DNA of 32,000 bases, from the NCBI GenBank assembly GCA_016432445.1, contig CP066689.1, positions 360,001 to 392,000 of the forward strand, in the 5' to 3' direction. This document shows, one piece after another, positions 189 through 28,335 of this stretch. Below the pieces are notes generated by a model that was not told where the DNA came from, searched no databases, and saw only the letters and a program-made list of their open reading frames with translations. Origin of the DNA: Candidatus Saccharimonadota bacterium (lineage in GTDB: Bacteria > Patescibacteriota > Microgenomatia > UBA1406 > GWC2-37-13). How positions within the stretch are numbered: the first letter of the stretch is position 1; each line of letters opens with the position of its first letter. A program made the position numbers and the translations under genes.

Positions 189-233
189 CGATTTACCATA
201 GATTTGTTTAGTCAGATATGCGATAATATCAGT

Positions 234-548
234 ATGAAACAGGAGAAAAATCTAAAACTTCCTAATTTTTTTCGCTCCTATTTTTGGGATATAGAGTTTA
301 ATAAGCTGAAAACTAAAACACACTCTTCTTTAGTCATAAAACGAGTACTCGATAGAGGGAATCTTCGTGACATACGTTGGTTAGTAAAAACATATGGAAA
401 AGACGCAATCAAAGAAGTGGTTATGAAAACACGAGATTTAGCCCGCCCCACCTGTAATTTTTGGGCAGATGTTTTAGATCTTGATAAAAGTAAAATACCA
501 TGTTTACAAAAACCTTACTTCCCGATACATTTCGGGCTATCCAGTTAA
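234..548 (+). CDS. small protein overlapping the AbiEii-family gene; putative cognate antitoxin/partner
   Basis: The track ORF 204-548 begins at a TTG; the first ATG is at 234 (MKQEKNLKLPNFFRSYFWDIEF...). Its 3' end overlaps the next gene by 49 nt, a typical antitoxin-toxin arrangement. I cannot name a domain with certainty. Confidence 0.5.
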   Translation: MKQEKNLKLPNFFRSYFWDIEFNKLKTKTHSSLVIKRVLDRGNLRDIRWLVKTYGKDAIKEVVMKTRDLARPTCNFWADVLDLDKSKIPCLQKPYFPIHFGLSS

Positions 549-1132
549 TTTCAGGCATTTCCGAGATAAAAAAAGGTTATCTTGCTGGAGGTACTGCTTT
601 AGCGCTTCAGATTGGACATAGAATTTCCGTGGATCTTGATTTCTTCACTCAAGAGGAATTCAATGTAACTGAATTATCTGAGAAATTTTCCTCTTTATCA
701 GAATTCTCACAAGATGGTACCTCAAAATGGACGATATGGGGAAAAGTTGGCCAAACGAAATTTAGTATATTCTACTATAAATATCCATTACTTGAAAAAA
801 CTTTGCCATTTGAAGGGATTCAACTGGCAAGTCTCTCTGATATTGTCGCCATGAAAATCCATGCGATTGAAGATAGAGGGACTAGACGGGATTTTGTAGA
901 TATTTATTTTCTTTTGAAAAAGTATACTTTTGAAGAAATGATTAGTTTTTATCAAAAAAAATATTCTGTTTTAGAAGATCATTTATATTCAATTCTTCGC
1001 GCTCTTGATTATTTTGAGGATGCGGAACAAGAAAGTCAAATGCCAAAAATGATACTTGAGGTCAATTGGGAAGAAGTAAAAGAATGTTTTAGAAAAGAGA
1101 CGTACCGCCTCATTAAAAAAAAGTTAAAATGA
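500..1132 (+). CDS. nucleotidyltransferase, AbiEii/AbiGii toxin family
   Basis: The N-terminal YLAGGTALALQIGHRISVDLDFF matches the GGTAL..R.S.D.D nucleotidyltransferase signature of AbiEii (DUF1814-type) toxins. The 210-aa ORF has an ATG start. Confidence 0.75.
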   Translation: MFTKTLLPDTFRAIQLISGISEIKKGYLAGGTALALQIGHRISVDLDFFTQEEFNVTELSEKFSSLSEFSQDGTSKWTIWGKVGQTKFSIFYYKYPLLEKTLPFEGIQLASLSDIVAMKIHAIEDRGTRRDFVDIYFLLKKYTFEEMISFYQKKYSVLEDHLYSILRALDYFEDAEQESQMPKMILEVNWEEVKECFRKETYRLIKKKLK

Positions 1133-1208: not shown

Positions 1209-1237
1209 TTGATTTCTCGCCAGGATTTTAGTATAAT
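1209..1237 (+). promoter_or_regulatory. sigma70-type promoter, leaderless configuration
   Basis: TTGATT (1209-1214), a 17-nt spacer, TATAAT (1232-1237), then 6 nt to the ATG at 1244. No SD is present. Confidence 0.55.
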
Positions 1238-1243
1238 TCATAT

Positions 1244-2029
1244 ATGACTGAAACCCCCAATTTTTACGAACCTGCAACTCCTTTTAAATACCCTCTTCTT
1301 GATACTGATTTTTATGCAGATAGTACAGAGATAAAGCGATTAAAACATTTTCCGCACAAAGTGGTAAGAATAACAGAAGGAACTTATGATAATCGTCCTC
1401 TAGGTTCATTAAAAAATCAACTTAAATCAACTCAATATGAATACATTGAAGGCCGTAAAATTCTTCAAAGATTAAATGATCATTATCATATTCCTGTACC
1501 TGATTTTGATATCGTTATCGGGTCAGGGAATGATCAGCAAGTAACCTATTACACAATAGTCGACAAAATCTCAGGTAAAGATTTAGAATATTGTTCAATT
1601 AAACCTCGGGAAATGAAGCATGTAAAAAAGTTAGTAGATGAATTGTACGGTTCAATTGCCCAATATCTTTGGGATACTTATCAAGAAGGCGGATGGTATT
1701 TAAGTGATCTAGTAAAAGATGATTCCCAACTTGTTTATGGGAAGAAGAAAGGAGAGAAACAAAAGAGAATATATTTTGTAGATATTGAACCACGATTAGA
1801 GTATTTAGATTTACAAGATTCTAGGACTCATACACAAGTACTCATATTGGCTTTTAACTGGCTTTATGAAATGATTAAGTCCAGAGAATATGAATTTGGA
1901 TCAAAATTAAGACACGCGCGACAGACTTTACTCAATTTTGCAAATACTGTTTCTCCTTTTAATGAATATTTTCCAGATGTCCAAATGGTGAAAGAAGAAT
2001 TAGAAAGAGGAAATTTTTTAGAAGAATAA
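1244..2029 (+). CDS. hypothetical protein with weak protein-kinase/aminoglycoside-phosphotransferase-like features
   Basis: This is a 261-aa ORF. SDLVKDDSQLVYG resembles a HxDxxxxN-type catalytic loop, and RIYFVDIEP resembles the metal-binding IDxE/DFG strand. The function is tentative. Confidence 0.6.
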   Translation: MTETPNFYEPATPFKYPLLDTDFYADSTEIKRLKHFPHKVVRITEGTYDNRPLGSLKNQLKSTQYEYIEGRKILQRLNDHYHIPVPDFDIVIGSGNDQQVTYYTIVDKISGKDLEYCSIKPREMKHVKKLVDELYGSIAQYLWDTYQEGGWYLSDLVKDDSQLVYGKKKGEKQKRIYFVDIEPRLEYLDLQDSRTHTQVLILAFNWLYEMIKSREYEFGSKLRHARQTLLNFANTVSPFNEYFPDVQMVKEELERGNFLEE

Positions 2030-2089
2030 TTCTATAAGAGCATAAAACTTAAATAATACTAATTAATTGATTTTGATAAAATTTACTAT

Positions 2090-3922
2090 ATGGGAGAAGG
2101 TACTCCATTACCATCTAAGGTAATAACAAATAATCTTCAAGAAGGATCTAACGGCGCTAATACGTATGATAATAGGAATAATCATTTAGATTCGGCTGTT
2201 CTATCGCAACAAGAGGGGTTAAGTGCACTAAATAGGTTTCTCCAAAGAAAAGCTGGTTTTGATTCCTTAGGGATATTTGTAATAGATTTAAATGGAGAAA
2301 AATACAAAAAAAAATCGGGTAATTGTCAATTCTATTTGGGTAGATTGGAAGAAAGCTCCAAAAATCCGTATTATCTTAGTATAAATCCTGCTTATTATTT
2401 GGGACACATGCCAGAATTGTTATTTGTTGTTCCTCGAATAGCTCATGTTGGAAAAAAACCATACTACTGGGTTGAATTTACAGACGAACTTATCGATGGT
2501 ATCATAAAGCCAGCTTTTACTTCCTGTCGTCTAAGACCTGATCAATCGACATCTAAGATCGACTCTGTTTACTGGAGAGGTTTTGAAGAGCAATTACTCG
2601 TAGATTTTATTCGAGGGGAAAATAACATTACAACTTCAGACTTAAGGCCATTTCGAATTAAATTACATTCTAAGGATCCTTACTCGTTTGGAGGAATTCA
2701 GGATCTGAAACTTTGTCTAACTGCCAATTCCAAGATTAATGGTGGAGACGAACTGCTTATAGTTCCGCGAACCGATTCACAGAATCTTTATTCATGGATA
2801 GACATATATAAACAGACAAAAACAGGAGAAGAACTTATAAAAATTTCAACACATCGAATATCGCAAGAAGAAAAAAAACTTATAAGCATTGGTTGGAAAA
2901 ATCCTGAAACTCAATATTTGGTTGATTATTTATCAGGAGATCCTAAAGTTACTTTCAACAACTTACGTCCATTACGTTTAAAACTTCCTGAACATCTTGG
3001 TCAAACATATGTTGGTTTAGAAGCAAACAACAAAAAAAAATTTTTAATTTCTATCCATAAGTTTGAGGTAGATGAGGTAATTTTAATTCCGAAGCAAGAT
3101 CCTAAAGGGTTGTATCAATGGGTTGAAGCTTATGAATTTGATCCTGAGACAGGAGAGCCTATTGGTGAAGCCATAACTTCTGTAAGAATGACACGAGGTG
3201 TGGGATTTGAAAAACTTGGCTGGCTTGGAGCTGGAATACAAAGTCTAATTGATTATTCCAGTGAGGTAAGAATGTTCAATGACCTTTTGCCAATAACTTT
3301 GAAAGTTGGTGCAAACACTAAAATGCTTGATGTATGGGGTACGAAAAATGAACATGTTTGGTTAACCCTTTCAGTAAAATCTGGTTTAAAAAGTGGTGAT
3401 AGTATTGAACTTATTCCCGACAAGGAATTAGAGGATACTATTGTTTATAAAATGGTACGTGGACAAACAGAATTAGGTTCTTATAGTTTTGATAGAAAAA
3501 CTAAAAAATTTAGCGTTATTGAATTTCATGATTTTCGAAATATTATTCTTCAACCAAGAGATTATTTGCTAGATTATTCGCAAGGTAAAATTGGATTTAC
3601 AGAATTAAAAACGATTCATTTAACAGTAAAAAAAGATCCTGGGATGATTGATATTCTTTCAAAAGGGAAAGTTCGTATTTACATAACGCCTTCTAAATCC
3701 TTTGGTTTAGTTCCAGAGGATGAGGTGGAACTTATTCCACAAGAAGAAAATGAAGGTCAAGCAATATTTGCATTCGTCAAAAATGGAGTAGTATTGGGGC
3801 GATATATATATGAATCTCAAACAATGAAATTTTATCAAGAACCTATAAGGGATGTTCAAGCTTTACCACTTATTTCTCGAGAAGAAGCTTTAAGAGTATT
3901 AGGTATGTTTTTTGATAATTGA
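2090..3922 (+). CDS. 610-aa protein built from a ~108-aa unit repeated about five times; no recognised domain
   Basis: Self-alignment anchors are ELLFVVP(aa109), ELLIVP(221), EVILIP(329), SIELIP(438), EVELIP(545) and LVDF(169), LVDY(277), LIDY(386), LLDY(492). TGaTAAAAT (2074-2082) lies 7 nt before the ATG. Confidence 0.8.
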   Translation: MGEGTPLPSKVITNNLQEGSNGANTYDNRNNHLDSAVLSQQEGLSALNRFLQRKAGFDSLGIFVIDLNGEKYKKKSGNCQFYLGRLEESSKNPYYLSINPAYYLGHMPELLFVVPRIAHVGKKPYYWVEFTDELIDGIIKPAFTSCRLRPDQSTSKIDSVYWRGFEEQLLVDFIRGENNITTSDLRPFRIKLHSKDPYSFGGIQDLKLCLTANSKINGGDELLIVPRTDSQNLYSWIDIYKQTKTGEELIKISTHRISQEEKKLISIGWKNPETQYLVDYLSGDPKVTFNNLRPLRLKLPEHLGQTYVGLEANNKKKFLISIHKFEVDEVILIPKQDPKGLYQWVEAYEFDPETGEPIGEAITSVRMTRGVGFEKLGWLGAGIQSLIDYSSEVRMFNDLLPITLKVGANTKMLDVWGTKNEHVWLTLSVKSGLKSGDSIELIPDKELEDTIVYKMVRGQTELGSYSFDRKTKKFSVIEFHDFRNIILQPRDYLLDYSQGKIGFTELKTIHLTVKKDPGMIDILSKGKVRIYITPSKSFGLVPEDEVELIPQEENEGQAIFAFVKNGVVLGRYIYESQTMKFYQEPIRDVQALPLISREEALRVLGMFFDN

Positions 3923-3951
3923 TATCCATTTGATAAAATTACAGGAATATT

Positions 3952-6900
3952 ATGGGAAAGGAAAATGAAGAAATTATAGCATCAGCTAATCAAAGAGCTG
4001 GATTAAACGAACCGCAAGAATTACCTGTCCTAGGATCAAACGCTAAAGCTTTGATTGAAAAAATCATAACTCTTAATCCAAAAAACCCTGATTATCCTTT
4101 TTCTCAACCTTTTGACAAGCATTATGCAGGAATGGTCTCAGATGATCCTGGAGTTTATGCACGTAAATATACTCTTGCAAGAGCACTTATTGCAGATGGA
4201 AGATATGGGAATATAAGATTTCTCGATACTGCTTTTATTCCTCAAGGAGAAGAAGTTCCTCCTCAAGTACAGGCTTTAAAAGATGATCTTCATGTGAGAG
4301 TAAGGGAAGAACTATTGAAAAGAGGAGATAAAAAAGTAACGGCAGAAGTGGAAGAAGATATGAGAAATTTTACTCAAGAAGTAGATGAGGGTAAAACACT
4401 TGACGCTCAAGAGTTTAGAAAACTTGTGCATCTTTTTGGAGGTTCCCGTGTTGTTGATATTCTCTATCGGACTCGGCCGGAATTTCGAGGAATGCCAGTT
4501 GAAAAAGTGAAAAGCATTATTGCTGATTTTTTGGGTGATTTCTTAGTTAAAAAAGGCGGTTTTAATCCTGACGATATTGAGGTTGGAATAAAATATTTAT
4601 CAGAGGCAACATTTCAGGAAGGATTGTATGAAACAATAAAAGATAATTGCCTTCAATTTTATAACTTCCAAAAAAAAGCAGGTTCGGCAGAATCAGATAG
4701 AGAATTAACTAATGAATATTTTGATATTGCCGATATGGAAATACAAGGTTTTAAGAACCCTCATCTGGATCAGATTTTACAAAGAGCAAGGCAATATTAT
4801 ACGTCACTTTACGAAGACTTGCCTAAACCACCTCAAATTATTGGCGAGCTTAAAGAAGGAAGATCTTTTCCTGACTTGAATCAGCTTATTAATATGAAGG
4901 AAGTGGTAGATAAAAGAAGAGTTGCTATTGCTGATGACATGGGACTTGGTAAAAGTGCTTCAATGATACTGACAAAAGAAATGCTACATCTTAAATGTGC
5001 TTTGGTTGCAGCACCAGCTAATGTTATTTCAACTTGGCAACGTTATTTATCTGATCAAAAAGTAGATGGTAAACAGATGGGATATTTTAAAGAAGGGATG
5101 GCTCCCAAAGTAGTTATTATTGATAATCCTTTAGCTTTACATGAATCTGATTTTTCTCAAGCTGATTATGTTCTGATTTCTCATGAACGATTAAATGATT
5201 CTTATACCCCAGTTTTAGAGCAAGTGCCTTTTGAAATGGTAATTGTTGATGAGGTACATAAACTAAAAAATCTACAAAAAGGAGTAAGAGCAGGTAATTT
5301 AATTAAAATTGCGCAAGCCGCAGAAAGACGTAATGCCTACTTAGGAATTTTATCAGGAACACCAGTCCCAAATAAAATTCAGGACGTCGCTATGATATTA
5401 AAATTGCTATATCCGGAAAGATTTGGTGAAGCTTCTAACAAAGATCTTGTTAAAAAAATCATTAATGGAGATCTTCTAGATTTGAGAAGTTTACTTATAC
5501 CACGAATGCAGATGAAAGGTAAAGAAAGTCTTAATTTGCCTGAACTTACACAAGATGTTATTAAAGTTGATATGTCTCCTGAAGAAAAAGAAGTGTATGA
5601 GGTACTTATGGAAAATGACGAAATGGAAGCAACGGAAAAAATTCAGGTGTTGAGACAGTTTTTAATGAATCCAAAGCTTCTTGATATGACTCCGAATATG
5701 GAAGGCTCAAAAATTAAAGCAGTAGGTCAACATCTTAATAATGTTTTTCAAAATAAAAATAAAGTAGTAATGTTTGTTAATGGTTACGTTCAAGGAATAA
5801 TAAGAGGCGATAAGGAAAAAATAATTTTAGGCAGAATGGGTTTACCTGATGATGTTGAGATAAAAGTAATTCATGGTGAAGATATGGGAAATATCGAACG
5901 TGAAAGAATACAATCTGAATTTAATAACTCTGATAAAAAAATACTACTTGTTGTCAGCGGACAGACTGCTGATGTTGGAATTGATTTATCAGGAGGAGAA
6001 GAAGTTGTTTTCTACAATGAACCTTGGTCACTTTATGATAAACAACAACAGTTGGCAAGAGTGCATAGAGAGGGCGTAAAACATCCTGTTAGAAGTATGA
6101 CATTTATAACTAATGGAACAATTGAAGATGGAATAAGCATATATATCCAAATGAAGCAAAATGCAATAGAAAAACTTCTTAGAGGGATAGAACTATCCAA
6201 GATGGACAAAGAGTTACTTGAAAAAGATGAGAAAGTTGAGGGTTCAAACCTAGAGGTTAATCGAGAACTTGCCGATTATTATTTTTCATCATTAGATAGG
6301 ATGATGAAAATTTTTGGCCACGTTAGAGAATTAGGTGAGGAAGCATTCATAAAATTTTTGGAAAGATATGGTGAGGATTATGCAGAGTGCTATAGCGATT
6401 TGGGTAGCCGAAACTATCAATCAAATGCTTGCCGGATAAACGGAACTATTATTGCTGAGATGATTGAGAAACATGGTCAAGATCTAGTAGGCTTGAGGAT
6501 ACTTGATATTGCGTCAGGACCTGAAATGTTAAGAAAACACATTACAGATAAATATCAAGATAGAATAATAAGCCTTGATATTAATGCTTTGCATTTTAAA
6601 GGTGAAGGAGGAAACAGAATTGTGGGGAGTTTTACTGCTTTGCCGGTTGAGAGTGGTTCTATCGATTATGCTAATCTCTCTTTAGCTTTACATTATTCAA
6701 GGTTTGTACCAAGTAAAGGAGAATATGAAAGATTAAAGGTTTTGGCTGAGATGAATAGAGTTTTAAAGATTGGAGGTAAAACAGTTCTTAATCTCATGTA
6801 TAATGCAGATCTAAAAAGTTTTGAAAAGTTTAAGACAATTGTCGAAGCACTTGGTTTTAAAATTGATGAAGAATATACGGATAATGTTATAGTAGGTACA

Positions 6901-7293
6901 CAATATCAGTCACGAATTATTACATTAGAAAAGATTCAAGATATAGATCCAGATATTAATGTGGTTATTAGTAACATAGATAAAGAAGCTTATGATGGAT
7001 TAAAAATGCCAAAAGGAAGTTGCGGGTTAAAAAATCCCCGCAAGATTGTAAGAGCATTTGTGGTAAATGGAGTAAATCATCCAGTTAAATTCAATGATAG
7101 CGATCAGGCTGTTTTGGAAGAAGAAACAACCATAATGACAGAAGGAGAACAGCTAAGAAATATGTACGGCGGGGTTAAATATATCCCAAGAGATGATATA
7201 ATCCAAAATGGATATGCTCGTGTTCTTATAGCTAATAAATACGTTTTGTTTAAAAAACTTCAGAATAACAATGGGGTTGTTATTATAAGATAA
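3952..7293 (+). CDS. SNF2-family ATPase/helicase fused to a C-terminal class I SAM-dependent methyltransferase domain
   Basis: SNF2 motifs are DDMGLGKS (nt 4933-4956), DEVH (5248-5259), LSGTPVPNK and QLARVHREG (6049-6075). The methyltransferase fold shows ILDIASGPE (6502-6525), IISLDIN, GSIDYANLSLALHY and LKIGGKTVLNL. About 310 aa at the N-terminus and about 150 aa at the C-terminus are unassigned. Confidence 0.85.
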   Translation: MGKENEEIIASANQRAGLNEPQELPVLGSNAKALIEKIITLNPKNPDYPFSQPFDKHYAGMVSDDPGVYARKYTLARALIADGRYGNIRFLDTAFIPQGEEVPPQVQALKDDLHVRVREELLKRGDKKVTAEVEEDMRNFTQEVDEGKTLDAQEFRKLVHLFGGSRVVDILYRTRPEFRGMPVEKVKSIIADFLGDFLVKKGGFNPDDIEVGIKYLSEATFQEGLYETIKDNCLQFYNFQKKAGSAESDRELTNEYFDIADMEIQGFKNPHLDQILQRARQYYTSLYEDLPKPPQIIGELKEGRSFPDLNQLINMKEVVDKRRVAIADDMGLGKSASMILTKEMLHLKCALVAAPANVISTWQRYLSDQKVDGKQMGYFKEGMAPKVVIIDNPLALHESDFSQADYVLISHERLNDSYTPVLEQVPFEMVIVDEVHKLKNLQKGVRAGNLIKIAQAAERRNAYLGILSGTPVPNKIQDVAMILKLLYPERFGEASNKDLVKKIINGDLLDLRSLLIPRMQMKGKESLNLPELTQDVIKVDMSPEEKEVYEVLMENDEMEATEKIQVLRQFLMNPKLLDMTPNMEGSKIKAVGQHLNNVFQNKNKVVMFVNGYVQGIIRGDKEKIILGRMGLPDDVEIKVIHGEDMGNIERERIQSEFNNSDKKILLVVSGQTADVGIDLSGGEEVVFYNEPWSLYDKQQQLARVHREGVKHPVRSMTFITNGTIEDGISIYIQMKQNAIEKLLRGIELSKMDKELLEKDEKVEGSNLEVNRELADYYFSSLDRMMKIFGHVRELGEEAFIKFLERYGEDYAECYSDLGSRNYQSNACRINGTIIAEMIEKHGQDLVGLRILDIASGPEMLRKHITDKYQDRIISLDINALHFKGEGGNRIVGSFTALPVESGSIDYANLSLALHYSRFVPSKGEYERLKVLAEMNRVLKIGGKTVLNLMYNADLKSFEKFKTIVEALGFKIDEEYTDNVIVGTQYQSRIITLEKIQDIDPDINVVISNIDKEAYDGLKMPKGSCGLKNPRKIVRAFVVNGVNHPVKFNDSDQAVLEEETTIMTEGEQLRNMYGGVKYIPRDDIIQNGYARVLIANKYVLFKKLQNNNGVVIIR

Positions 7294-7315
7294 AAGTTAT
7301 AGAATATGTTTCAAT

Positions 7316-7816
7316 ATGGAAAGACCTATAGTTCCAAATGAAGCTCGAACCCATGCTTTCTTTGATCGTTCAGCTGCAGATGTTGCTGAAGATATGGCAG
7401 AAAGAGTATATGAACGGATAGAGGATAAAGTAACATACAGAGAAGGCCGAGCTAAAATTCTTCAAGTTAGTACTACAGAGGGTCAGAAACAATACGTTAT
7501 CGCAGTGGCAGAACCTTATTCTGCAGCGAATCCAAATAGAGTATGGAAGGGTAAAAGACTTGATGAAATAAAAGCAAGTAAACCTGGAGATATAGAAGTA
7601 TATGGTTACAGAGCTGGAATACTTCCTTTTGGAACAGCAAAAGGAGGAGATAATGTGTTGATTCGTGAGTTAAGAGATCTTGAGACAAATGAACAAATAA
7701 AATCTCCTACAGCTGTAGCAAGGGTATTAGGTCTTGTTCATGGAGATAGGGGAAAATTAACTTTCTCCGGAGAAAATCAGTTGAGATTTGAAAGGATAAA
7801 TACTCCTCAAAGATAA
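7316..7816 (+). CDS. divergent 3-methyladenine (alkyladenine, AAG/Mpg-type) DNA glycosylase-like protein
   Basis: FFDRSAADVAEDM resembles the FF.R....VA..LLG N-terminus. VAEPYSAANP resembles the ETEAY acid/aromatic motif. GDIEVYGYRAG...GGDNVLIRELRD resembles G..YVY..YG...G.AVLIRA. SPTAVARVLGL resembles GPg.l..alGi. The protein is shorter than typical family members, so the call is tentative. Confidence 0.45.
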   Translation: MERPIVPNEARTHAFFDRSAADVAEDMAERVYERIEDKVTYREGRAKILQVSTTEGQKQYVIAVAEPYSAANPNRVWKGKRLDEIKASKPGDIEVYGYRAGILPFGTAKGGDNVLIRELRDLETNEQIKSPTAVARVLGLVHGDRGKLTFSGENQLRFERINTPQR

Positions 7817-7820
7817 TAAA

Positions 7821-8930
7821 TTATCGTTTGTGTTTCCAGATGACTTTGTTGTAGAAGAAGTAAGAGTAGGGTATGACGATGAAGACGATGACTGCGACTT
7901 TGTAAATGTATAATAGTTTGATTCCAAATAATGCTTTAAGGATCTCGACTCCTACAGTTTGAATAATAATATTTCCAGAGGATACAAGATTAAACTTAAA
8001 GAAACCTTTTATATAAGATTTTTTATTATGGTCGACTTTCTTGTGAGCAAAACTCCAAAAATTGTTAAGCATAAAATTTGATAAAACAGCAGTTTCGGTA
8101 CTTATCAAATTAGCTTTCCAGCTTACAAGATGAGCAAATTTTGTTAGAAAGTAAAATATTCCAAAATCAATGACAAAACCGATTGCGCCGACAATCACAA
8201 ATTTTACAAACGATGAATTTGTGAAAACATAAAGAAGAGTTTGAAAAATGGTTTGGAAAGAGTTAAGTTTGGATACACCATAATTTCTATCTTTAAAATT
8301 AATAGGAGTTTCGGCGACTATAGCATGTTTTTTAAGCGCATAATCTAAGAAAGCTACTTGAAATACATAGCCGCTGTAATTTTTGATGTGAGGAGAGGCT
8401 TCTTTGACAATCCACGATTTTATGGCGCGGTATCCTGATGTCCAATCAGTAATTCTTGGTTTCATAAAACCTACTTTAATTATAAGATTGCCGACAACCG
8501 AAAGAATTTTTCTATGAATTCCCCAATTTTCGGGAATTGATCCTCCTTTGATATATCTTGAACCAATGACAAAATCAGCGCCTTTTTCGATTTTATGAAG
8601 AAAGTTGGGGATACTAGCCGGGTCATGGGAAAGATCTGCATCCATCTCAAAAATAAGATAAGGATTTAATTTTTCTATGGAAACAGTAAAGCCTTCAATA
8701 TAAGCTTTACCTAAACCCTCTTTTTTAGTCTTAATCAAGTGAAGTCTCGGATATTTTTTAATCAGATTAGTTACAATTTCCTGAGTTTTATCTTCGGAAT
8801 CACTGTCAACAACAACAATATGAAGTTCCCAGTTAGGAGTTTTTTTATTTTGCTCAAAAATATCTATAATAAGAGTTTCTATTGTTCCTGCTTCATTATA
8901 TGTCGGTACTACTATTGCCGCTTTTTTCAT
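7821..8930 (-). CDS. GT2 polyprenol-phosphate (dolichol-P-mannose synthase-like) glycosyltransferase fused to a GtrA-like membrane domain
   Basis: VVPTYNEAGTIETLI, VVVDSDSEDKT and EMDADLSHDP are GT2/DPM1-type motifs. The C-terminal four-helix region FVKFVIVGAIGFVIDFGIFYFL... is typical of GtrA. An ATGA overlap joins it to the upstream UXS gene. Confidence 0.8.
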   Translation of the reverse strand: MKKAAIVVPTYNEAGTIETLIIDIFEQNKKTPNWELHIVVVDSDSEDKTQEIVTNLIKKYPRLHLIKTKKEGLGKAYIEGFTVSIEKLNPYLIFEMDADLSHDPASIPNFLHKIEKGADFVIGSRYIKGGSIPENWGIHRKILSVVGNLIIKVGFMKPRITDWTSGYRAIKSWIVKEASPHIKNYSGYVFQVAFLDYALKKHAIVAETPINFKDRNYGVSKLNSFQTIFQTLLYVFTNSSFVKFVIVGAIGFVIDFGIFYFLTKFAHLVSWKANLISTETAVLSNFMLNNFWSFAHKKVDHNKKSYIKGFFKFNLVSSGNIIIQTVGVEILKALFGIKLLYIYKVAVIVFIVIPYSYFFYNKVIWKHKR

Positions 8931-9871
8931 AAAAATCTTTGCTTAAAATACACAATAGTTTTTCGCATTCCTTCTTCAATACTAACGGAAGGTTGCCAAT
9001 TTAAAAGTTTTTTTGCTTTGGAAATATCAGGTTTTCTTTTTTTAGGATCATCCTCATCCAGCGGTTTAAAAACAATTTCCGATTTTGTATCGGTCATTTT
9101 TTTAACTAAGTTAGCTAATTTCAAAACTGTCATTTCATTAGGATTGCCTAAATTTATGACTTCTCCTTTTATATTATCAGTTTTTCCTAAAGCATATAAA
9201 CCTTCAATCATATCGGATACAAAGCAAAAAGATCTTGTTTGATCGCCCTTTCCATAAACAGTTAAAGGCTCATTAGTAATCGATTGCATAATAAAATTAG
9301 AAACCACACGGCCATCATTTTTTTCCATATTGTGTCCATAAGTATTGAAAATTCTGGCGATGCGGACATTTAAATCATAGCGCCGGTAATAAGACATGAC
9401 TAAAGCTTCAGAAAATCTTTTGGCCTCATCATAACATGAGCGGACTCCTACAGGATTGACATTACCCCAGTAATCTTCAGTTTGAGGGTGAACTAGGGGG
9501 TCGCCATAAGTTTCTGAGGTTGAAGAAATGACAAAAGTTTTACTTCCAGATGACTTGAAAAACTCAAGCATTTTATAAGTACCTAAAGAATTAGTCATCA
9601 TGGTTTCGATATTGTATTTTTTATACTGAACAGGCGAAGCAGGGGAAGCAAGATGATAGATAACATCAAATACCGGCAGTTTAAGAAAATCAAAAGAGGT
9701 GATGTCAGCTTCTATAAATGTAAGTTTTTTTTTATTAGTAAGCTCTTCAATATTTTTTTTGTTTCCGGTTACGAGATTATCAATTATGTAGATGTCGTCA
9801 TTTAAATTAAGATGATATTGAGTAAGATTTGAGCCTATAAAACCGGCTCCTCCAGTAATTAAAATATTCAT
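8927..9871 (-). CDS. uxs: UDP-glucuronate decarboxylase (UDP-xylose synthase), SDR family
   Basis: ILITGGAGFIGSNL is a Rossmann motif, and SCYDEAKRFSEALVMSY carries the YxxxK of UXS-type enzymes. The gene lies downstream of ugd. Confidence 0.8.
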   Translation of the reverse strand: MNILITGGAGFIGSNLTQYHLNLNDDIYIIDNLVTGNKKNIEELTNKKKLTFIEADITSFDFLKLPVFDVIYHLASPASPVQYKKYNIETMMTNSLGTYKMLEFFKSSGSKTFVISSTSETYGDPLVHPQTEDYWGNVNPVGVRSCYDEAKRFSEALVMSYYRRYDLNVRIARIFNTYGHNMEKNDGRVVSNFIMQSITNEPLTVYGKGDQTRSFCFVSDMIEGLYALGKTDNIKGEVINLGNPNEMTVLKLANLVKKMTDTKSEIVFKPLDEDDPKKRKPDISKAKKLLNWQPSVSIEEGMRKTIVYFKQRFL

Positions 9872-9876
9872 ACTAT

Positions 9877-11175
9877 TTATAAAATAGGTTGTCTTCCCGT
9901 GGAGATATATGTAAATCCGAGCTTTTTAATAAACTCCAACTGATAAATATTCCTTCCGTCAATAATGACAGGATTTTTCATCAGACTTTTCACTTTTTTT
10001 AAATCAGCCTGTTTAAACTCATTCCACTCAGTAAGAATGCAAAGGGTACAAGCGTCTTTGACAGCATCATAAGCGTTTTGCGCGTAAGTAATTTTGTCGC
10101 CAAACATTTTTCTAATATTTTTTGTAGCCTCAGGGTCATAGACTGTTAGCTTAAAACCTTGTTCAAGCAAGGCTTTTATTAAAAATACAGAAGGGGCGGC
10201 GCGGATATCATCAGTATCAGGTTTAAATCCCAGTCCCCATATGGCAATATGTTTACCTTTACAATGTTTCAATACTTTATCTAAATAATTATTTCTGGAA
10301 TCAGCGTTTATTTTCTCAACTGCATCCAAAAATTTAACATCAATTCCAAAGTTCCGCCCGGTATGAACTAAAGCATTAACATCTTTTGGCAAACAAGAGC
10401 CGCCGTAGCCCACACCCGGGTATAAAAATACTCTGCCGATTCTTTTATCAAGCCCGACAGCATTAAGTACAGTTTCAACATCAGCTCCAGTTTTTTCACA
10501 ATAAAAAGCTATAAGATTGGCAAATGAAATTTTGGTCGCAAGCATTGCATTGGATGTATATTTGATAAGCTCAGCTGATGCCAAATCAGTAATGACCCGG
10601 TCTCCAGTAAGAGGTTCATGAAGTTCCAAAAGCCGATCAATTGCTTTATTGCTGTCTGAACCAATAACTATGCGGTCGGGATTGATCGTATCATGCAAAG
10701 CTGTTCCTTCCCGCAAAAACTCAGGACAGGAAGCTACCGCGACTTGAGCATCTTTTCTTTTGTTTTTGTTTAAAATTTCTTCAACCTTTTTATTAGTGCC
10801 TACCAAAACTGTGCTTTTGCAGGATACAACTGTAAAACCTTTTTTCAAATTTTTGCCGATATTAGTTGCCACATCAAAAACCGCGGAAAGGTCAGCTTCT
10901 CCATTGTGAGTTGGTGGGGTGCCCACAGTAATAAATACAATATCGGATTCCGAGACTGCCTGTTTGTAATCTAGGGTAAAATGAAGTCTTTGAGCCGCGA
11001 GATTTTTCCCCAAAAATTCTTTTAGCCCAGGTTCATAAATTATGGGGTCGCCTTTTTTTAACCGGTCTATTTTTTCAGGAGTGTGTCCTACTACCCATAC
11101 TTTGTTGCCAAAATCTGAAAAAACGCAGGCTGTAACTAGTCCTACGTAGCCATGACCCACAACAGTAATTGTCAT
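9877..11175 (-). CDS. ugd: UDP-glucose 6-dehydrogenase
   Basis: VVGHGYVGLV forms the NAD-binding site, and GYGGSCLPKDV carries the catalytic Cys motif. The length is 432 aa. Confidence 0.9.
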   Translation of the reverse strand: MTITVVGHGYVGLVTACVFSDFGNKVWVVGHTPEKIDRLKKGDPIIYEPGLKEFLGKNLAAQRLHFTLDYKQAVSESDIVFITVGTPPTHNGEADLSAVFDVATNIGKNLKKGFTVVSCKSTVLVGTNKKVEEILNKNKRKDAQVAVASCPEFLREGTALHDTINPDRIVIGSDSNKAIDRLLELHEPLTGDRVITDLASAELIKYTSNAMLATKISFANLIAFYCEKTGADVETVLNAVGLDKRIGRVFLYPGVGYGGSCLPKDVNALVHTGRNFGIDVKFLDAVEKINADSRNNYLDKVLKHCKGKHIAIWGLGFKPDTDDIRAAPSVFLIKALLEQGFKLTVYDPEATKNIRKMFGDKITYAQNAYDAVKDACTLCILTEWNEFKQADLKKVKSLMKNPVIIDGRNIYQLEFIKKLGFTYISTGRQPIL

Positions 11176-11242
11176 AAGGAATAATAATATAAAATTAAAA
11201 CCGAAAATTCAATCAAAAGTCTAAATATCAAAATTCAAATTA

Positions 11243-11280
11243 CAAATGTCAAATCAAATTTCAAGTTCAAATGTCAAATG
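11243..11280. repeat. low-complexity CAAATGTCAAAT direct repeat (2 copies) in an intergenic spacer
   Basis: caaatgtcaaat occurs at 11243-11254 and 11268-11279. The complementary motif atttgacattt recurs at 21123-21133. Confidence 0.6.
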
Positions 11281-11316
11281 AATGTTTTAAGGTTCGGATT
11301 TTAAATTTTGGATTTG

Positions 11317-11338
11317 ACCTGCCTGCCGGCAGGCAGGT
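11317..11338. repeat. perfect 22-nt GC-rich palindrome (ACCTGCCTGCC|GGCAGGCAGGT) between two minus-strand operons; likely terminator/insulator hairpin
   Basis: The palindrome can be read directly. It sits 7 nt downstream of the rfbD stop. Its arms match the stem of the 14521-14571 element. Confidence 0.7.
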
Positions 11339-11344
11339 TTAAAA

Positions 11345-12187
11345 TTAGAGCTTTGTCATTTGGATTTTTATTTCATTGAGTCCTTCTTCAAATGTTTTCA
11401 TGGAGTGGAAATTATTTTTTTTACTTTTTATTTGAGAATATTGAGATCTGACAGCTTTATCTTTTGAATATTCCTCAAAAGTAGTCGGGACAATAAGCGA
11501 CTCATCTAAATTAAATGTTTTAGCGATTAAGTTGGCAGCATCATAAGGTGAAAGGCTATCAGCTCCAACCACATGGTAAATCTCAGGAGAGTAGTTATTC
11601 ATTAAATATTTTAGCGAGTAGGCGATATCGTCAACAAATGTCGGAGTGATTAAAGAGTCGGTAATCATCTTAAGCTGAGTTCCTTGTTTTAAATAATCAA
11701 TTAATTTTCTGACTAAATCTTTTTTTATTTCATAATTGGCGCGGTAAGGATAAGAAAGCCGGACAATCATGGCATTGTTGTTAACAATCTTTTCTCCTTC
11801 ATACTTAGTTTGCGCATAATAGCCAGTAGGGTCAGGCGTGCTGTCTTCAAAATAAGGAGGATTTTTTCCGTCAAAAATAAAGTCGGTTGAGATATAGATA
11901 AATTTTTTATTTTTTTTGGAAACAAAATCGAAAACATTTTTTGTTCCCTCAACATTTATTTTGTGAGCAAGTTCTTTTTGGTTTTCTGCCCCATCAACAT
12001 TGGTGTAGCCTGCTAGGTGAAGAAATAAATCAAAGTCTAAGTTGGCAAGGTTTGATTCAACTGAGTCAGGATCGGTAATATCCATATCTTCGATAGAAAG
12101 GGAAAGGAACTCAAAATCATTTTGAAGAAGTTCAACGATTCGCGAACCTATTAAACCGCTAGCTCCTGTAATTGCTATTTTCATCAT
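11345..12187 (-). CDS. rfbD: dTDP-4-dehydrorhamnose reductase (RmlD-type SDR)
   Basis: KIAITGASGLIGSRI and YAQTKYEGE (YxxxK) are present. The gene is 280 aa and starts 5 nt downstream of rfbB. Confidence 0.7.
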   Translation of the reverse strand: MMKIAITGASGLIGSRIVELLQNDFEFLSLSIEDMDITDPDSVESNLANLDFDLFLHLAGYTNVDGAENQKELAHKINVEGTKNVFDFVSKKNKKFIYISTDFIFDGKNPPYFEDSTPDPTGYYAQTKYEGEKIVNNNAMIVRLSYPYRANYEIKKDLVRKLIDYLKQGTQLKMITDSLITPTFVDDIAYSLKYLMNNYSPEIYHVVGADSLSPYDAANLIAKTFNLDESLIVPTTFEEYSKDKAVRSQYSQIKSKKNNFHSMKTFEEGLNEIKIQMTKL

Positions 12188-12190
12188 ATT

Positions 12191-12232
12191 AGTTATGGGT
12201 GATGAGTTTTGGGTTGTGGGTTGAACTCAGAA
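12191..12232. repeat. GGGTT-type degenerate repeat (half site) overlapping the rfbB stop
   Basis: agttatgggtgatgagttttgggttgtgggttgaactcagaac belongs to the same family as 23209-23272, 24778-24860 and 25268-25300. Confidence 0.6.
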
Positions 12233-13203
12233 CGATATTTAATTTTCTGCCACCACTCTTGATTATCTTTATACCATTCAATAGTTTTATTCAAATATTC
12301 ATCAAAGCTGTATTTTGGCTGCCAGCCAAATTCCTGTTTCATGCGTGACCAGTCTATAGCATAGCGGCGGTCATGTCCTGGTCTGTCTTTAACAGTCTCC
12401 ATCATCTCTTCATCTTTTCCCATAATCTTTAAGATTTTTTTAATGACCTCAATGTTAGGGATATCTTCGGTCAGTCCGCCGATAAGATATGTCTCGCCGA
12501 CTTTTCCTTTTTGCAAAATGACATCAATGGCTTCGCAGTGATCTTCAACATAAAGCCAGTCACGGACATAAAGGCCATCACCATAAACCGGCACTTTTTT
12601 TCCTTCCAAAAGATTTGTGATTGCCAAAGGAATCAGTTTTTCAGGAAATTGGTAAGGACCGTAATTGTTGGAACAGTTGGAAATTGTCATTGGCAGTCCG
12701 TAAGTTTCCGCATAAGCTCGGACTAAAAAATCAGATCCCGCTTTTGATGCTGAGTAGGGACTGCGGGGGTTGTAGGGCGTTTTATCATTAAATTTTTCGG
12801 TTGTATTTAAAGGCAAAGCTCCAAAAACTTCATCGGTTGATACATGATGAAATCTTTTGACCTTGTTTTGCAAAGCGGCGTTAAGAAGAACGCCTGTGCC
12901 TTCAACATTAGTTTTAATAAAAGGAGCCGGGTCAAGAATCGAGCGGTCAACATGCGATTCAGCTGCAAAATGAACGACTGTGTCTACGCCCTTCATCAGT
13001 TCATTCATCTTTTCTCTATCACAAATATCGGCATGTTCAAAAGAATAATTAGAGTTTCCTTCAATACTTTTAAGATTTTCCAAGTTGCCGGCGTAGGTGA
13101 GTTTGTCAACATTCACAATCTGGTCCTGGGGATATTTTTTTAACCAATATAAAACGAAGTTAGACCCAATAAATCCCGCCCCACCCGTAACAATCAGTTT
13201 CAT
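12193..13203 (-). CDS. rfbB: dTDP-glucose 4,6-dehydratase
   Basis: LIVTGGAGFIGSNF, the YSASKAGSD catalytic YxxxK and HVSTDEVFG are present. The length is 336 aa. Confidence 0.9.
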   Translation of the reverse strand: MKLIVTGGAGFIGSNFVLYWLKKYPQDQIVNVDKLTYAGNLENLKSIEGNSNYSFEHADICDREKMNELMKGVDTVVHFAAESHVDRSILDPAPFIKTNVEGTGVLLNAALQNKVKRFHHVSTDEVFGALPLNTTEKFNDKTPYNPRSPYSASKAGSDFLVRAYAETYGLPMTISNCSNNYGPYQFPEKLIPLAITNLLEGKKVPVYGDGLYVRDWLYVEDHCEAIDVILQKGKVGETYLIGGLTEDIPNIEVIKKILKIMGKDEEMMETVKDRPGHDRRYAIDWSRMKQEFGWQPKYSFDEYLNKTIEWYKDNQEWWQKIKYRSEFNPQPKTHHP

Positions 13204-18000: not shown

Positions 18001-18015
18001 TGATATATTATAGCA
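18001..18015 (-). promoter_or_regulatory. extended -10 promoter, leaderless configuration
   Basis: On the minus strand, TGcTATAAT (complement of 18007-18015) is followed by 6 nt and the ATG at 18000. Confidence 0.45.
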
Positions 18016-18061
18016 CTACATTTAAGCCATGAAAAAAAACACCCACTAACTTTTTAAGAAA

Positions 18062-18097
18062 CCCCGCAAAGCGGGGAGCCCCGACATCATTGTCGGG
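18062..18097 (-). terminator. GC-rich double hairpin; intrinsic terminator of the GC-rich two-gene module
   Basis: The minus strand reads CCCGAC-aatgat-GTCGGG, then CCCCGC-ttt-GCGGGG, followed by TTTCTT. Confidence 0.65.
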
Positions 18098-18125
18098 ACC
18101 GGGGTGTTTTTGGTGCTGCGGAAAT

Positions 18126-18590
18126 CTATTCGAAGAAGTCAGGGGCGGTGTCGTCGTCAATCTTGGCGATGAACTCCCGACAGAGACCCTGGATGGCTGA
18201 AAGAACCCACCAGCCAATGGTTTCATCCCAATGGTTTGCCAATCCAGAGCCGGCGACCACGAGGCCATGCTCAGTGACAGAACCGACGTATCGTGTGTCA
18301 CTCTTCTGGTAAAGCCAAGGTGCGTTGACTTGAACATCTCTAGTTGTTAGGCCAGTGCGAGTGGCAATGGTTCCTTTGGATCCGGCGATCTTGTCGTAGG
18401 GATATTCCCATCTTGGTCGATCGCCGTATACGTCGTCGGCGAGAATGTCATCGGTGCCAAGATCAAAAACAGCAATATAGAAATCCTTCCTGCCGCCAAC
18501 TAGTTCCGTGCCCAAAATAGCTTCAATTGATGGCCTGATCATGGCGAGGGCTTTCTGAGCGAGTTCCTTCGTTAGAATGTAGGTGACCAT
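18126..18590 (-). CDS. hypothetical protein, possibly GlcG/HbpS-like (DUF336-type) fold
   Basis: This 154-aa ORF is GC-rich, with a strong SD (GAAAGGAGAAGGA) upstream. IAGSKGTIATRTGLTTRDV and GSVTEHGLVVAGSGLANHWDE loosely resemble the GlcG motifs (..KA.TA.. and G.iGaiGvSG...D). The function is tentative. Confidence 0.65.
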   Translation of the reverse strand: MVTYILTKELAQKALAMIRPSIEAILGTELVGGRKDFYIAVFDLGTDDILADDVYGDRPRWEYPYDKIAGSKGTIATRTGLTTRDVQVNAPWLYQKSDTRYVGSVTEHGLVVAGSGLANHWDETIGWWVLSAIQGLCREFIAKIDDDTAPDFFE

Positions 18591-18636
18591 TTTTTCCTTC
18601 TCCTTTCAAATTGAGTAAGTTACTTTGCAGTGTGTG

Positions 18637-18924
18637 TTAGTTCAGCTCGACCACCCAGTGGGTGCCGTCGTTGGCGAGAACAAAGTTCCAGCCCGCCATT
18701 ACATATCGATCCTTCAGTTCAATGATCGTGTTGATGGCATTGGTATCGTAGGGTAGTTCTACGACAGCGTATCTTACGGTCTCTCCTCCTTTGTAGTTCG
18801 CGACCAAAGCCGCATCTATGCCAGCTTCGATTGCCGCTACCTGTTGTGAGTGTGCAAGCGTTCTTTGAAGATAACCCTCCTGATCCTCGAGTTCTTCCTG
18901 GAAATGAATTTTGAGTAGTGCCAT
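18637..18924 (-). CDS. hypothetical protein (95 aa), GC-rich, no recognised domain
   Basis: The ATG at 18924 is preceded by AAGGAGGA. The longer track ORF (to 19128) runs through the promoter and is unlikely to be real. Confidence 0.65.
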   Translation of the reverse strand: MALLKIHFQEELEDQEGYLQRTLAHSQQVAAIEAGIDAALVANYKGGETVRYAVVELPYDTNAINTIIELKDRYVMAGWNFVLANDGTHWVVELN

Positions 18925-18961
18925 TTGCTTTCCTCCTTTAGCTTTTAGCCATTTTATTTTT

Positions 18962-19017
18962 GAGCACACTGCTCTTTCTAGCAATAAATTTATTATAGCC
19001 AAAAAGAGCATGTGCTC
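18962..19017 (-). promoter_or_regulatory. putative promoter flanked by two GAGCA-N2/3-TGCTC palindromes (operator-like)
   Basis: The minus strand reads GAGCAcaTGCTC (complement of 19006-19017), tttttggc, TATAAT (complement of 18992-18997), aaatttattgctagaaa, GAGCAgtgTGCTC (complement of 18962-18974). Confidence 0.4.
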
Positions 19018-28300: not shown

Positions 28301-28335
28301 TCATCATTTAATAAATTATTAGGCGCCAGCTGCAT
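25309..28335 (-). CDS. UvrD/PcrA-type superfamily 1 helicase fused to a C-terminal PD-(D/E)XK (Cas4/AddB-like, Cys-containing) nuclease domain
   Basis: Helicase motifs are AGAGTGKTTVI (Walker A) and VLVDEFQDTN (motif II). In the C-terminus, CPLQYKY, GKIDRVD...IEIIDYKTG and CSFCSFKMIC form the nuclease core plus the Cys cluster. Confidence 0.9.
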   Translation of the reverse strand: MQLAPNNLLNDEQKKAVAVNSGPLLIIAGAGTGKTTVIIEKIKDIIANKLAKPDEILALTFTEKASAEMEERVDREMPYGYFQMWISTFHSFADQILRDEISHIGLNAGYKLLTQAETIMFLKNNLFLFNLKYFRPLGNPHKFLGAMLQHFSRLRDEDISPEQYLTWVNNKPHNSDLSEEEKEKILELANAYKTYQELKIKEGFFDFSDLIFYLLKLFRSRLSILKKYQQQFKYVLVDEFQDTNIAQYLLLKLLCPTDSNPNLTVVGDDSQAIYKFRGASISNILTFMKDYPQAMQVTLKTNYRSYQHILDSSYKLIQNNNPDTLETQLGISKRLTAQRGQNKTTVQFYGADNINRESEFVSREIIKLKQKKNYKYSNFALLVRANNHADPFVAEFIRQGIPYKFFGPGMLFKQPEVKDLIAYLKVLYNIEDSISLYRVLSMDIFNIDTRDINLLITFSKKTNLPLLLAIEVYLFLISVIPIRQSSTLRGSDPNGLAEKESNAEIASAMPRNDNLQIYKKFLPLLHEDTKVALDKIYKMIHRHLELVKKDSAGQILYYFLEDTGYIKQIVTYQSQKQEKIALNISKFFSKLKSYENGHSDASVYAVVDYLDMSMEVGESPIVAEDDVADYDAVNIMTAHAAKGLEFPIVFLVNLSRGRFPTYEKKEPIPIPNELIKEILPQGDYHMQEERRLFYVGMTRAKDNLYLSLSQSYGEGKRERKISPFVIEALGEDIMKQIESKKKEEKLQLSIFDFKKPEENIIKEKFMLTNFSFSQLECFDKCPLQYKYQYILKIPTLSSSAASFGDTIHKTLQRFYQEYINDKKIGLPRLREIYHEQWVPIGYASAEHQEKMKQEGEKIIDEYFKNYHNPDIEIMALEKLFKIKLVDDIFLTGKIDRVDKTENGGIEIIDYKTGSMPDDKELAKSLQLSIYALAATDKGLYGKKLEQVGLAFYYLKDMQKKLIKRTDEDMSEVKNEIVEIVTKIRSDDFKPKVSALCSFCSFKMICEAW
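26798..26901. repeat. ~104-bp GC-rich, inverted-repeat-bounded hairpin element (MITE/REP-like) inside the helicase ORF, read through in frame
   Basis: The ends are GTCATTGCGA (26798-26807) and TCGGAATGAC (26892-26901), complementary at 9 of 10 positions. An inner hairpin CCGCCAG (26844-26850) / CTGGCGG (26884-26890) has a core homologous to 14521-14571. It encodes ...IRQSSTLRGSDPNGLAEKESNAEIASAMPRNDN.... Confidence 0.7.

Follow-up and report, generated by a model that had tools for sequence, protein, structure and literature searches.

A window of 32,000 nucleotides (nt) from the Candidatus Saccharimonadota contig CP066689.1 (positions 360,001–392,000 of assembly GCA_016432445.1) carries four consecutive open reading frames, orfA to orfD, which an original prediction made from the sequence alone had joined into a four-gene operon for nucleic-acid modification or defence, set beside an AbiE toxin module. 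Our analysis supports a different functional unit, consisting of a two-part core and a variable third part. The core is formed by orfC, an SNF2 ATPase fused to a class I methyltransferase, and orfD, a divergent member of the AAG/MPG glycosylase fold whose presence is facultative, while the third part corresponds to the position of orfB. orfA and the DUF6922/AbiEii gene pair upstream are neighbours and not demonstrated components. We tentatively prefer to see this unit as an accessory module for DNA-tracking methylation and base recognition with a conflict-type role, either in defence or in DNA marking.

The fusion of an SNF2 ATPase to a methyltransferase is borne out by Pfam, where the SNF2, Helicase_C and Methyltransf_11 matches expected for orfC were all obtained (Table 1). 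Sequence matches of orfC in the PDB include the Sulfolobus Rad54-like protein 1z63, CHD4 and ISWI. In an alignment of 34 family sequences, residues G333, K334 and S335 of Walker A, D433, E434 and H436 of the DExH motif and Q699 and R703 of motif VI are invariant, so that orfC displays both lobes, Walker A, DExH and the motif VI arginines of an SNF2 family ATPase. The same alignment shows invariant D852, G856, P857 and D876, which we read as motifs binding S-adenosylmethionine (SAM). Because the ATPase and SAM-binding residues are invariant, both activities of orfC are probably intact. The AlphaFold2 model of residues 775–1113 has a pLDDT (predicted local distance difference test) of 90.1 and yields 827 PDB matches (E ≤ 0.001), the 50 listed being without exception class I methyltransferases or proteins with a methyltransferase fold. 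The closest solved fold is the methyltransferase domain of nucleomethylin/RRP8 (2zfu; E 9.5e-9, TM score 0.73 on the target), with Bud23 and Trm11 among the generic class I methyltransferases ranked after it, and the sequence profile of the domain matches 1ve3 and 2zfu in the PDB. The PF08241 score, the fold and the invariant residues together place orfC among the class I SAM-dependent methyltransferases. Conversely, no DNA-methylase family appears among its Pfam, NCBIfam or PADLOC matches, and it has the hallmarks, namely a (D/N)PP(Y/F) or PC/ENV catalytic motif or a family match, of neither the DNA amino-methyltransferases nor the DNA C5-methyltransferases. The N-terminal region of orfC is conserved in two family alignments, and a 14-sequence profile of residues 120–322 found no match in the PDB. 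A metagenome-assembled genome of Candidatus Roizmanbacteria encodes a protein with 100% identity to orfC.

The original prediction also described orfD as AAG-like, a guess which is right as remote homology because the family profile matches true MPGs, although the Pur_DNA_glyco-like match expected for orfD itself was not obtained. Taken alone, orfD has no match in Pfam (E ≤ 0.1), NCBIfam, PADLOC or the PDB. When a profile of 26 orfD-family sequences was compared by hhalign with two bona fide MPGs (PF02245 E values of 9e-68 and 6e-58), a probability of 95.5% and an E value of 1.3e-8 were obtained, and a hidden Markov model (HMM) built without MPGs gave an E value of 4e-10 for one of these two MPGs but only 0.034 for the second. 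Single relatives approach the Pfam family to different degrees: that of locus L039 scores 27.2 bits against the PF02245 cut-off of 27, that of L060 scores 17.5 bits, and the others score nothing. Thus orfD stays below the PF02245 gathering score, while its relation to AAG/MPG is found at the level of fold and profile homology. These comparisons give remote support to homology of the orfD family with the MPG glycosylases, of which it would be a distant offshoot. The sequence AEPY of orfD is aligned to TEAY of the ETEAY motif, with Glu and Tyr kept, and the Glu of this motif is what we take to be the catalytic base (Glu125 of human AAG). In the corresponding column of the 26-member alignment, which is uncertain at such divergence, there are eight Glu, three Asp and 15 other residues, and the His and Asn columns are not retained in the family. 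Judged from the Glu column, many members are probably binders rather than glycosylases. A profile from a poor 132-column alignment of the family had no match in the PDB. A word-indexed homologue search found only two relatives each for orfD and orfA.

The neighbouring open reading frames of the SNF2-methyltransferase loci (given here by locus numbers such as L039) were clustered. In 28 of 66 loci the SNF2-methyltransferase gene has an orfD-like gene within 7 kb, and such a gene is present in 18 of the approximately 39 loci having at least 2 kb on both flanks; a search for hidden AAG-like genes in the loci without one found none. The distance between the two genes is usually below 160 nt across many lineages of the Candidate Phyla Radiation (CPR), and three arrangements occur: the orfD-like gene may precede the SNF2-methyltransferase gene on the same strand or follow it, either convergently or on the same strand. 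Of the four-gene co-conservation that was to be expected from an operon, the pairing of SNF2-methyltransferase and AAG-like genes therefore holds, as do the repeat-protein neighbours and fusions described below, but the four-gene unit does not, orfA being found in 0 of 65 other SNF2-methyltransferase loci.

The third part of the unit is encoded at the orfB position, where the genes are highly variable among loci. orfB itself was correctly described as a five-fold repeat: its five units of ~110 aa align with one another at Smith-Waterman scores of up to 135, against 26 ± 5 for shuffled sequence. The protein has no Pfam, PADLOC or PDB match, and a profile of the repeat unit found no PDB match either. 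The same repeat type recurs at L002, L011, L017 and L066, in genes that lie upstream of SNF2. In loci with a short SNF2 gene, separate upstream proteins are homologous (E values reaching 7e-95) to the N-terminal extensions of long SNF2-methyltransferases of 1400–1900 aa, and these long forms bear N-terminal helix-turn-helix (HTH) DNA-binding domains in Pfam. Since the upstream proteins are fused to SNF2 elsewhere, the Rosetta-stone or gene-fusion argument speaks for physical cooperation between the two. The repeat of orfB was not detected directly in the N-terminal extensions of the long proteins; the link from orfB to the extensions goes via other repeat types at the equal gene position. The nearest relative, L069, retains the order of upstream gene, orfC and orfD, with orfC 70% and orfD 62% identical, and its upstream protein has only the first 48 residues in common with orfB and a different repeat type after them. 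From these alignments, the upstream gene looks as if it were swapped between close relatives like a cassette. The orfB-type proteins are most likely a targeting or adaptor part.

Among 5.8 billion proteins the orfC family is represented by 117 clusters (90% identity, E ≤ 1e-10), of which some 114 are close to full length, and 63 SNF2-methyltransferase loci were found in 185,579 GTDB species genomes. As the two scan patterns recover 111 of the 117 known members, the canonical family is really rare. Its carriers, apparently all Patescibacteria, comprise Levybacteria, Saccharimonadia, Paceibacterota, Moranii-, Kaiser-, Taylor-, Doudna-, Peri-, Gracili- and Absconditabacteria, and since they span so many lineages the family is CPR-wide though patchy. 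Many records (L006, L011, L012, L017, L021, L026, L030 and others), all third-party annotation (TPA) assemblies, are titled "uncultured Gammaproteobacteria" or "Bdellovibrionales", which are probably placeholder or wrong labels and not an occurrence beyond Patescibacteria. In the supplement of a transposon-sequencing (Tn-seq) study of Southlakia epibionticum, "SNF2" occurs only in the domain list of PriA (PMC10633639). A phage origin of the module is unsupported: viral contigs of IMG/VR contain only generic SNF2 helicases of 20–28% identity that cover neither the N-terminal region nor the methyltransferase, and PHROGs likewise give nothing beyond a generic SNF2 match.

Apart from orfD-like and repeat genes, the surroundings vary, the 148 nearest neighbour proteins containing 151 Pfam families of which none occurs in more than four proteins. 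Large serine recombinases are encoded within a few kb in five loci (L011, L013, L038, L044 and L060) and a TraG/VirD4-like gene lies upstream in one, L030; because of these neighbours, some copies of the module may ride integrative or conjugative elements. The recombinases of L011 (11680–13218) and L013 (4633–6288) are both accompanied by a common block of two unknown genes. ATPases of the OLD/GajA/AriA type are found near the module in three to four loci. In L026 (3142–5448), L064 (5951–8188) and L013 (12245–14032) an SMC_N/AAA_15 ATPase of ~600–770 aa adjoins the module and may be a lineage-specific extra component; PADLOC mad3 models match within the neighbour set at E values down to 4.8e-63, probably on these ATPases.

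The kinase-like nature ascribed to orfA found no support, as orfA matches nothing in Pfam, NCBIfam, PADLOC, PHROGs or the PDB, and a 40-sequence profile of its family has no PDB match. Relatives of orfA number 538 in the representative library at E ≤ 1e-3. Grouped at 50% identity, they form a family of 538 or more clusters, ~250 aa in length and without a Pfam model, in which P13 and D180 never vary and R42, Q162, G166 and Y177 hardly ever do; some members are part of fused proteins of 350–770 aa. Two close homologues adjoin divergent SNF2-like modules (L066 and L068), and three more distant relatives that were looked up all lie beside unrelated housekeeping genes. orfA probably does not belong to the core of the module. 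In L066 (8824–15912, minus strand) a split version of the module is convergent with the orfA homologue and has separate genes for an orfB-type repeat protein of 836 aa, a helicase of 862 aa (23% identical to orfC), a methyltransferase (202 + 252 aa) and a weakly AAG-like protein of 188 aa. In L068 (765–6308) the orfA homologue is followed by a gene for a 791-aa protein and then by an SNF2-like gene.

As had been claimed, the four frames of the window share one strand with spacings of 60, 29 and 22 nt, and an AbiEii-type gene (PF08843) lies directly upstream of orfA. It is matched by 17 PADLOC AbiEii models and overlaps by 49 nt with a DUF6922 gene, which takes the antitoxin place by position only and is not a recognised AbiEi. 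From sequence and arrangement, the two look like a toxin-antitoxin pair. The proposed tie between this AbiE module and the four-gene cluster was not recovered, the pair being present in 0 of the 65 other SNF2-methyltransferase loci. The TTGATT-17-TATAAT element upstream of orfA exists, but its description as one strong promoter is not established because 41 similar sites occur in 9 kb, a count near the 36 ± 6 of shuffled sequence. Given its short distance to the orfA ATG, the site either serves a leaderless transcript or matches by chance. A -10-like hexamer stands 6–12 nt upstream of the ATG in all four frames, at 6–10 nt in the case of orfA and orfD, and a clear Shine-Dalgarno sequence is missing from each; the hexamers may act as internal promoters that yield leaderless or near-leaderless mRNAs, or mere AT-richness may account for them. 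The 12-nt motif TTTGATAAAATT, which is extended -10-like, is identical at 2072–2083 and 3929–3940, the first copy ending 6 nt upstream of the start codon of orfB and the second 11 nt upstream of that of orfC.

The G+C content across the module region is even (0.32–0.36), and no tRNA gene, flanking repeat or GC shift was found that would mark island boundaries in the window. At 18001–19000 the local G+C is 0.48, compared with ~0.35 elsewhere, and several small minus-strand frames (101–163 aa) are present there; Rfam has no matches in the window. Downstream of the module lie a cell-envelope sugar cluster and, beyond it, a helicase-nuclease fusion (7821–13203 and 25309–28335). The former comprises a GT2/GtrA glycosyltransferase, a UDP-sugar dehydratase/epimerase-family enzyme, a UDP-glucose dehydrogenase and RmlD/RmlB-like enzymes, the latter an AddA-type UvrD helicase fused to a PD-(D/E)XK nuclease (1008 aa).

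Table 1. Coordinates of the genes, domains and signals in and around the orfA–orfD region of the window.
Feature	Position (nt)	Strand	Residues (aa)	Remarks
DUF6922 gene	204–548			PF21956, 67.2 bits
AbiEii-type nucleotidyltransferase gene	500–1132			PF08843, E 3e-15, 57.2 bits (cut-off 22.5)
Promoter-like TTGATT-17-TATAAT	1209–1237	+		10 of 12 positions match; ends 6 nt 5' of orfA ATG
orfA	1244–2029	+	261 in total	member of a ~250-aa family without characterisation
orfB	2090–3922	+	610 in total	five tandem ~110-aa repeats
orfB repeat 1	2174–2527	+	29–146	boundaries by HMM
orfB repeat 2	2531–2869	+	148–260	boundaries by HMM
orfB repeat 3	2852–3202	+	255–371	boundaries by HMM
orfB repeat 4	3176–3502	+	363–471	boundaries by HMM
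orfB repeat 5	3491–3823	+	468–578	boundaries by HMM
orfC	3952–7293	+	1113 in total	SNF2 ATPase fused to class I SAM methyltransferase
orfC conserved N-terminal region	4309–4917	+	120–322	family-specific
orfC SNF2-rel_dom (PF00176)			324–563	66.2 bits, cut-off 24.9
orfC Helicase_C (PF00271)			588–708	45.2 bits, cut-off 23.5
orfC methyltransferase and C-terminal domain	6274–7290	+	775–1113	
orfC Methyltransf_11 (PF08241)			851–945	28.5 bits, cut-off 21.2
orfD	7316–7816	+	166 in total	divergent AAG/MPG-fold family member
orfD AAG/MPG-homologous region	7352–7753		13–146	hhalign

We tentatively read the core and its variable part as an accessory, conflict-type module because the SNF2-methyltransferase is rare, patchy, CPR-restricted and variable in architecture, and sometimes lies beside recombinases or toxin-antitoxin genes; the cassette-like adaptors and the helicase-plus-methylase theme favour this reading as well. 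In such a module, the repeat or HTH modules would place the SNF2 motor on DNA. orfC would act as an ATP-driven translocase on double-stranded DNA, the motor tracking along DNA while the tethered Rrp8/Bud23-type methyltransferase methylates a base, and by analogy with the nearest methyltransferase folds the target might be a ring nitrogen of a purine. orfD would be a base-flipping binder of purine lesions, and the AAG-like protein would then bind the methylated bases and might excise them where the catalytic Glu is retained, as it is in orfD. We infer here that the substrate is DNA, and likewise the position and kind of the methylation, the alternative of reading or excision and the biological role.

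Several observations weigh against this reading. The module is without a nuclease or other obvious effector, and the methyltransferase of orfC resembles rRNA, tRNA and small-molecule methylases rather than DNA methylases, so that its substrate could also be RNA or protein. As the Glu is retained in only eight of 26 AAG-like members, excision cannot be the general mechanism, and a single-sequence AlphaFold2 model of orfD reaches a pLDDT of only 34.7. Furthermore, about half of the well-flanked loci have no AAG-like neighbour, the flanking genes are mostly housekeeping genes (LigA, penicillin-binding proteins, PPDK and translational GTPases), and DNA-repair genes (AlkD-type PF08713, true MPG, LexA and LigA) recur nearby.

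The last two points lead to a serious alternative, somewhat less likely than our reading, namely alkylation-damage repair or genome maintenance. Here alkylated purines would be sensed or excised by the AAG-like protein, while the SNF2 motor would act at the lesions to clear or remodel complexes of protein and DNA, as eukaryotic CSB, ALC1 or Rad54-type remodelers do, and the methyltransferase would be regulatory or methylate a protein partner. The AAG/MPG ancestry of orfD and the chiefly housekeeping flanks agree with it, as do genes for PF08713 "DNA alkylation repair enzymes" of the AlkC/AlkD type beside the SNF2-methyltransferase in L047 (7464–8129), L048 (3059–3468) and L065 (13106–13822), true MPG genes 4–6 kb from the module in L043 and L049, LexA close by in L014, L058 and L063 and LigA directly upstream in L015 and L033. 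However, several of these repair-gene neighbours come from closely related loci and so stand for few independent events. A repair function would moreover leave a strictly conserved SAM-binding methyltransferase and fast-swapping repeat modules without a role, most AAG-like members have lost the catalytic Glu, and the orfC family is very rare and patchy for such a function. PF08713 is a second, unrelated family of alkylpurine glycosylases found beside the SNF2-methyltransferase, and L065 has both PF08713 and AAG-like genes.

A more novel reading, which we regard as unlikely, is a new kind of DNA-marking or immune system private to the CPR, in which the translocase would write marks of the N-methylpurine type on DNA, such as the 7-methylguanine (m7G), 3-methyladenine (m3A) or 1-methyladenine (m1A) hinted at by its Rrp8/Bud23-like fold, and a dedicated AAG-fold protein would read or excise them. 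It would further imply, with equally low likelihood, that the often catalytically degenerate AAG-fold protein works beside swappable repeat cassettes that set target specificity.

Slightly less likely still is a factor acting on RNA, the ribosome or RNA polymerase, in which a RapA-like SNF2 protein would carry an Rrp8-like domain methylating rRNA, tRNA or protein, and an AAG/FMT_C-fold partner would bind RNA. The nearest methyltransferase folds are indeed those of the rRNA and tRNA methylases RRP8, Bud23 and Trm11, the module of L002 lies between nusA-infB and rpsO-pnp, and translational GTPases are encoded close by in six loci. Yet this translation-gene synteny is limited to few loci, SNF2 ATPases are translocases that track double-stranded DNA, the long forms carry their HTH DNA-binding domains at the N terminus, no RapA model is among the NCBIfam matches of orfC, and so rare a family cannot be a core factor of translation or transcription. 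Finally, that the four genes form no system at all and are unrelated neighbours brought together by chance in a compact genome is highly improbable: orfA is not conserved with the others and its wider family occurs in unrelated contexts, the promoter is not statistically distinctive and the AbiEii pair is unlinked to the module elsewhere, but adjacency of orfC and orfD is conserved in 27 other loci of different lineages and orientations, upstream repeat proteins are fused to SNF2 in other genomes and L069 keeps the gene order, so that chance adjacency is excluded for orfC/orfD and still viable for orfA only.

The components belong to known superfamilies, and the cluster fits among the helicase-methyltransferase nucleic-acid modules. 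In the literature, the coverage of which is incomplete and no proof of novelty, no description of the SNF2-methyltransferase fusion or of its AAG-like pairing was found. If the proposed mechanism is true, this would be the first DNA motor with an attached base methyltransferase of a non-canonical kind, the rRNA type, acting together with a reader of glycosylase fold; to our knowledge, deliberate enzymatic N-methylation of DNA purines is not recognised as an epigenetic or immune strategy. It would also offer a biochemical handle on the CPR/Patescibacteria, whose accessory biology is almost wholly uncharacterised. Even on a conservative reading, the SNF2-methyltransferases, the AAG-like offshoot and the repeat adaptors constitute a new, testable set of families, in which an AAG fold has been recruited as the dedicated partner of a translocase.

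The claim that the cluster matches no named system holds against PADLOC, NCBIfam and Pfam, none of which makes an assignment. orfA, orfB and orfD have no PADLOC match, and those of orfC (best ZorD at 9.4e-27, BrxHII at 4.6e-13 and DpdE at 8e-12, and also DrmD) are confined to the generic SNF2 core at residues ~320–760; in NCBIfam, orfC scores 37.6 bits with DrmD against a cut-off of 610 and 45.4 bits with DpdE (NF041062) against 500. DISARM likewise combines an SNF2-family ATPase and a methyltransferase in one locus, with a weak DrmD match to orfC over the ATPase core. However, the DrmA helicase, DrmB (DUF1998) and DrmC (PLD) of DISARM are absent from the orfA–orfD module, which shows weak DrmD-type matches only; its methyltransferase is of the Rrp8-like class I and fused to the motor, whereas DISARM uses an N6A or C5 DNA methylase, and it has an AAG-like partner that DISARM lacks. 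ZorD models of Zorya match orfC at residues 321–758, but no other Zorya component is matched, with ZorA, ZorB, ZorC and the Mrr-type nuclease of ZorD all missing. The Dpd system shares the DpdE-type SNF2 core and has no further match, the TGT-like DpdA being absent from the module, and BREX shares the BrxH SNF2 core with orfC, while PglX and PglZ are absent. R.PabI-type systems pair a DNA glycosylase with a methyltransferase for restriction-modification; R.PabI has the HALFPIPE fold, to which the AAG-like fold is unrelated, together with an N6-adenine DNA methylase and no translocase. RapA/HepA is, like orfC, a bacterial SNF2 ATPase without a nuclease; it is an RNA-polymerase recycling factor without a methyltransferase, widespread and vertically inherited. 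The methyltransferase of orfC resembles Rrp8/nucleomethylin and, further down the list of folds, Bud23, but at identities of 16–19% and with 17.8 bits for PF05148 against a cut-off of 27, and unlike these proteins it is fused to a DNA translocase and to an extra C-terminal domain of ~110 aa. Similarly, the orfD family is homologous to AAG/MPG (PF02245) by profile-profile comparison, but its proteins are shorter (100–170 aa) and their genes are dedicated neighbours of the SNF2-methyltransferase.

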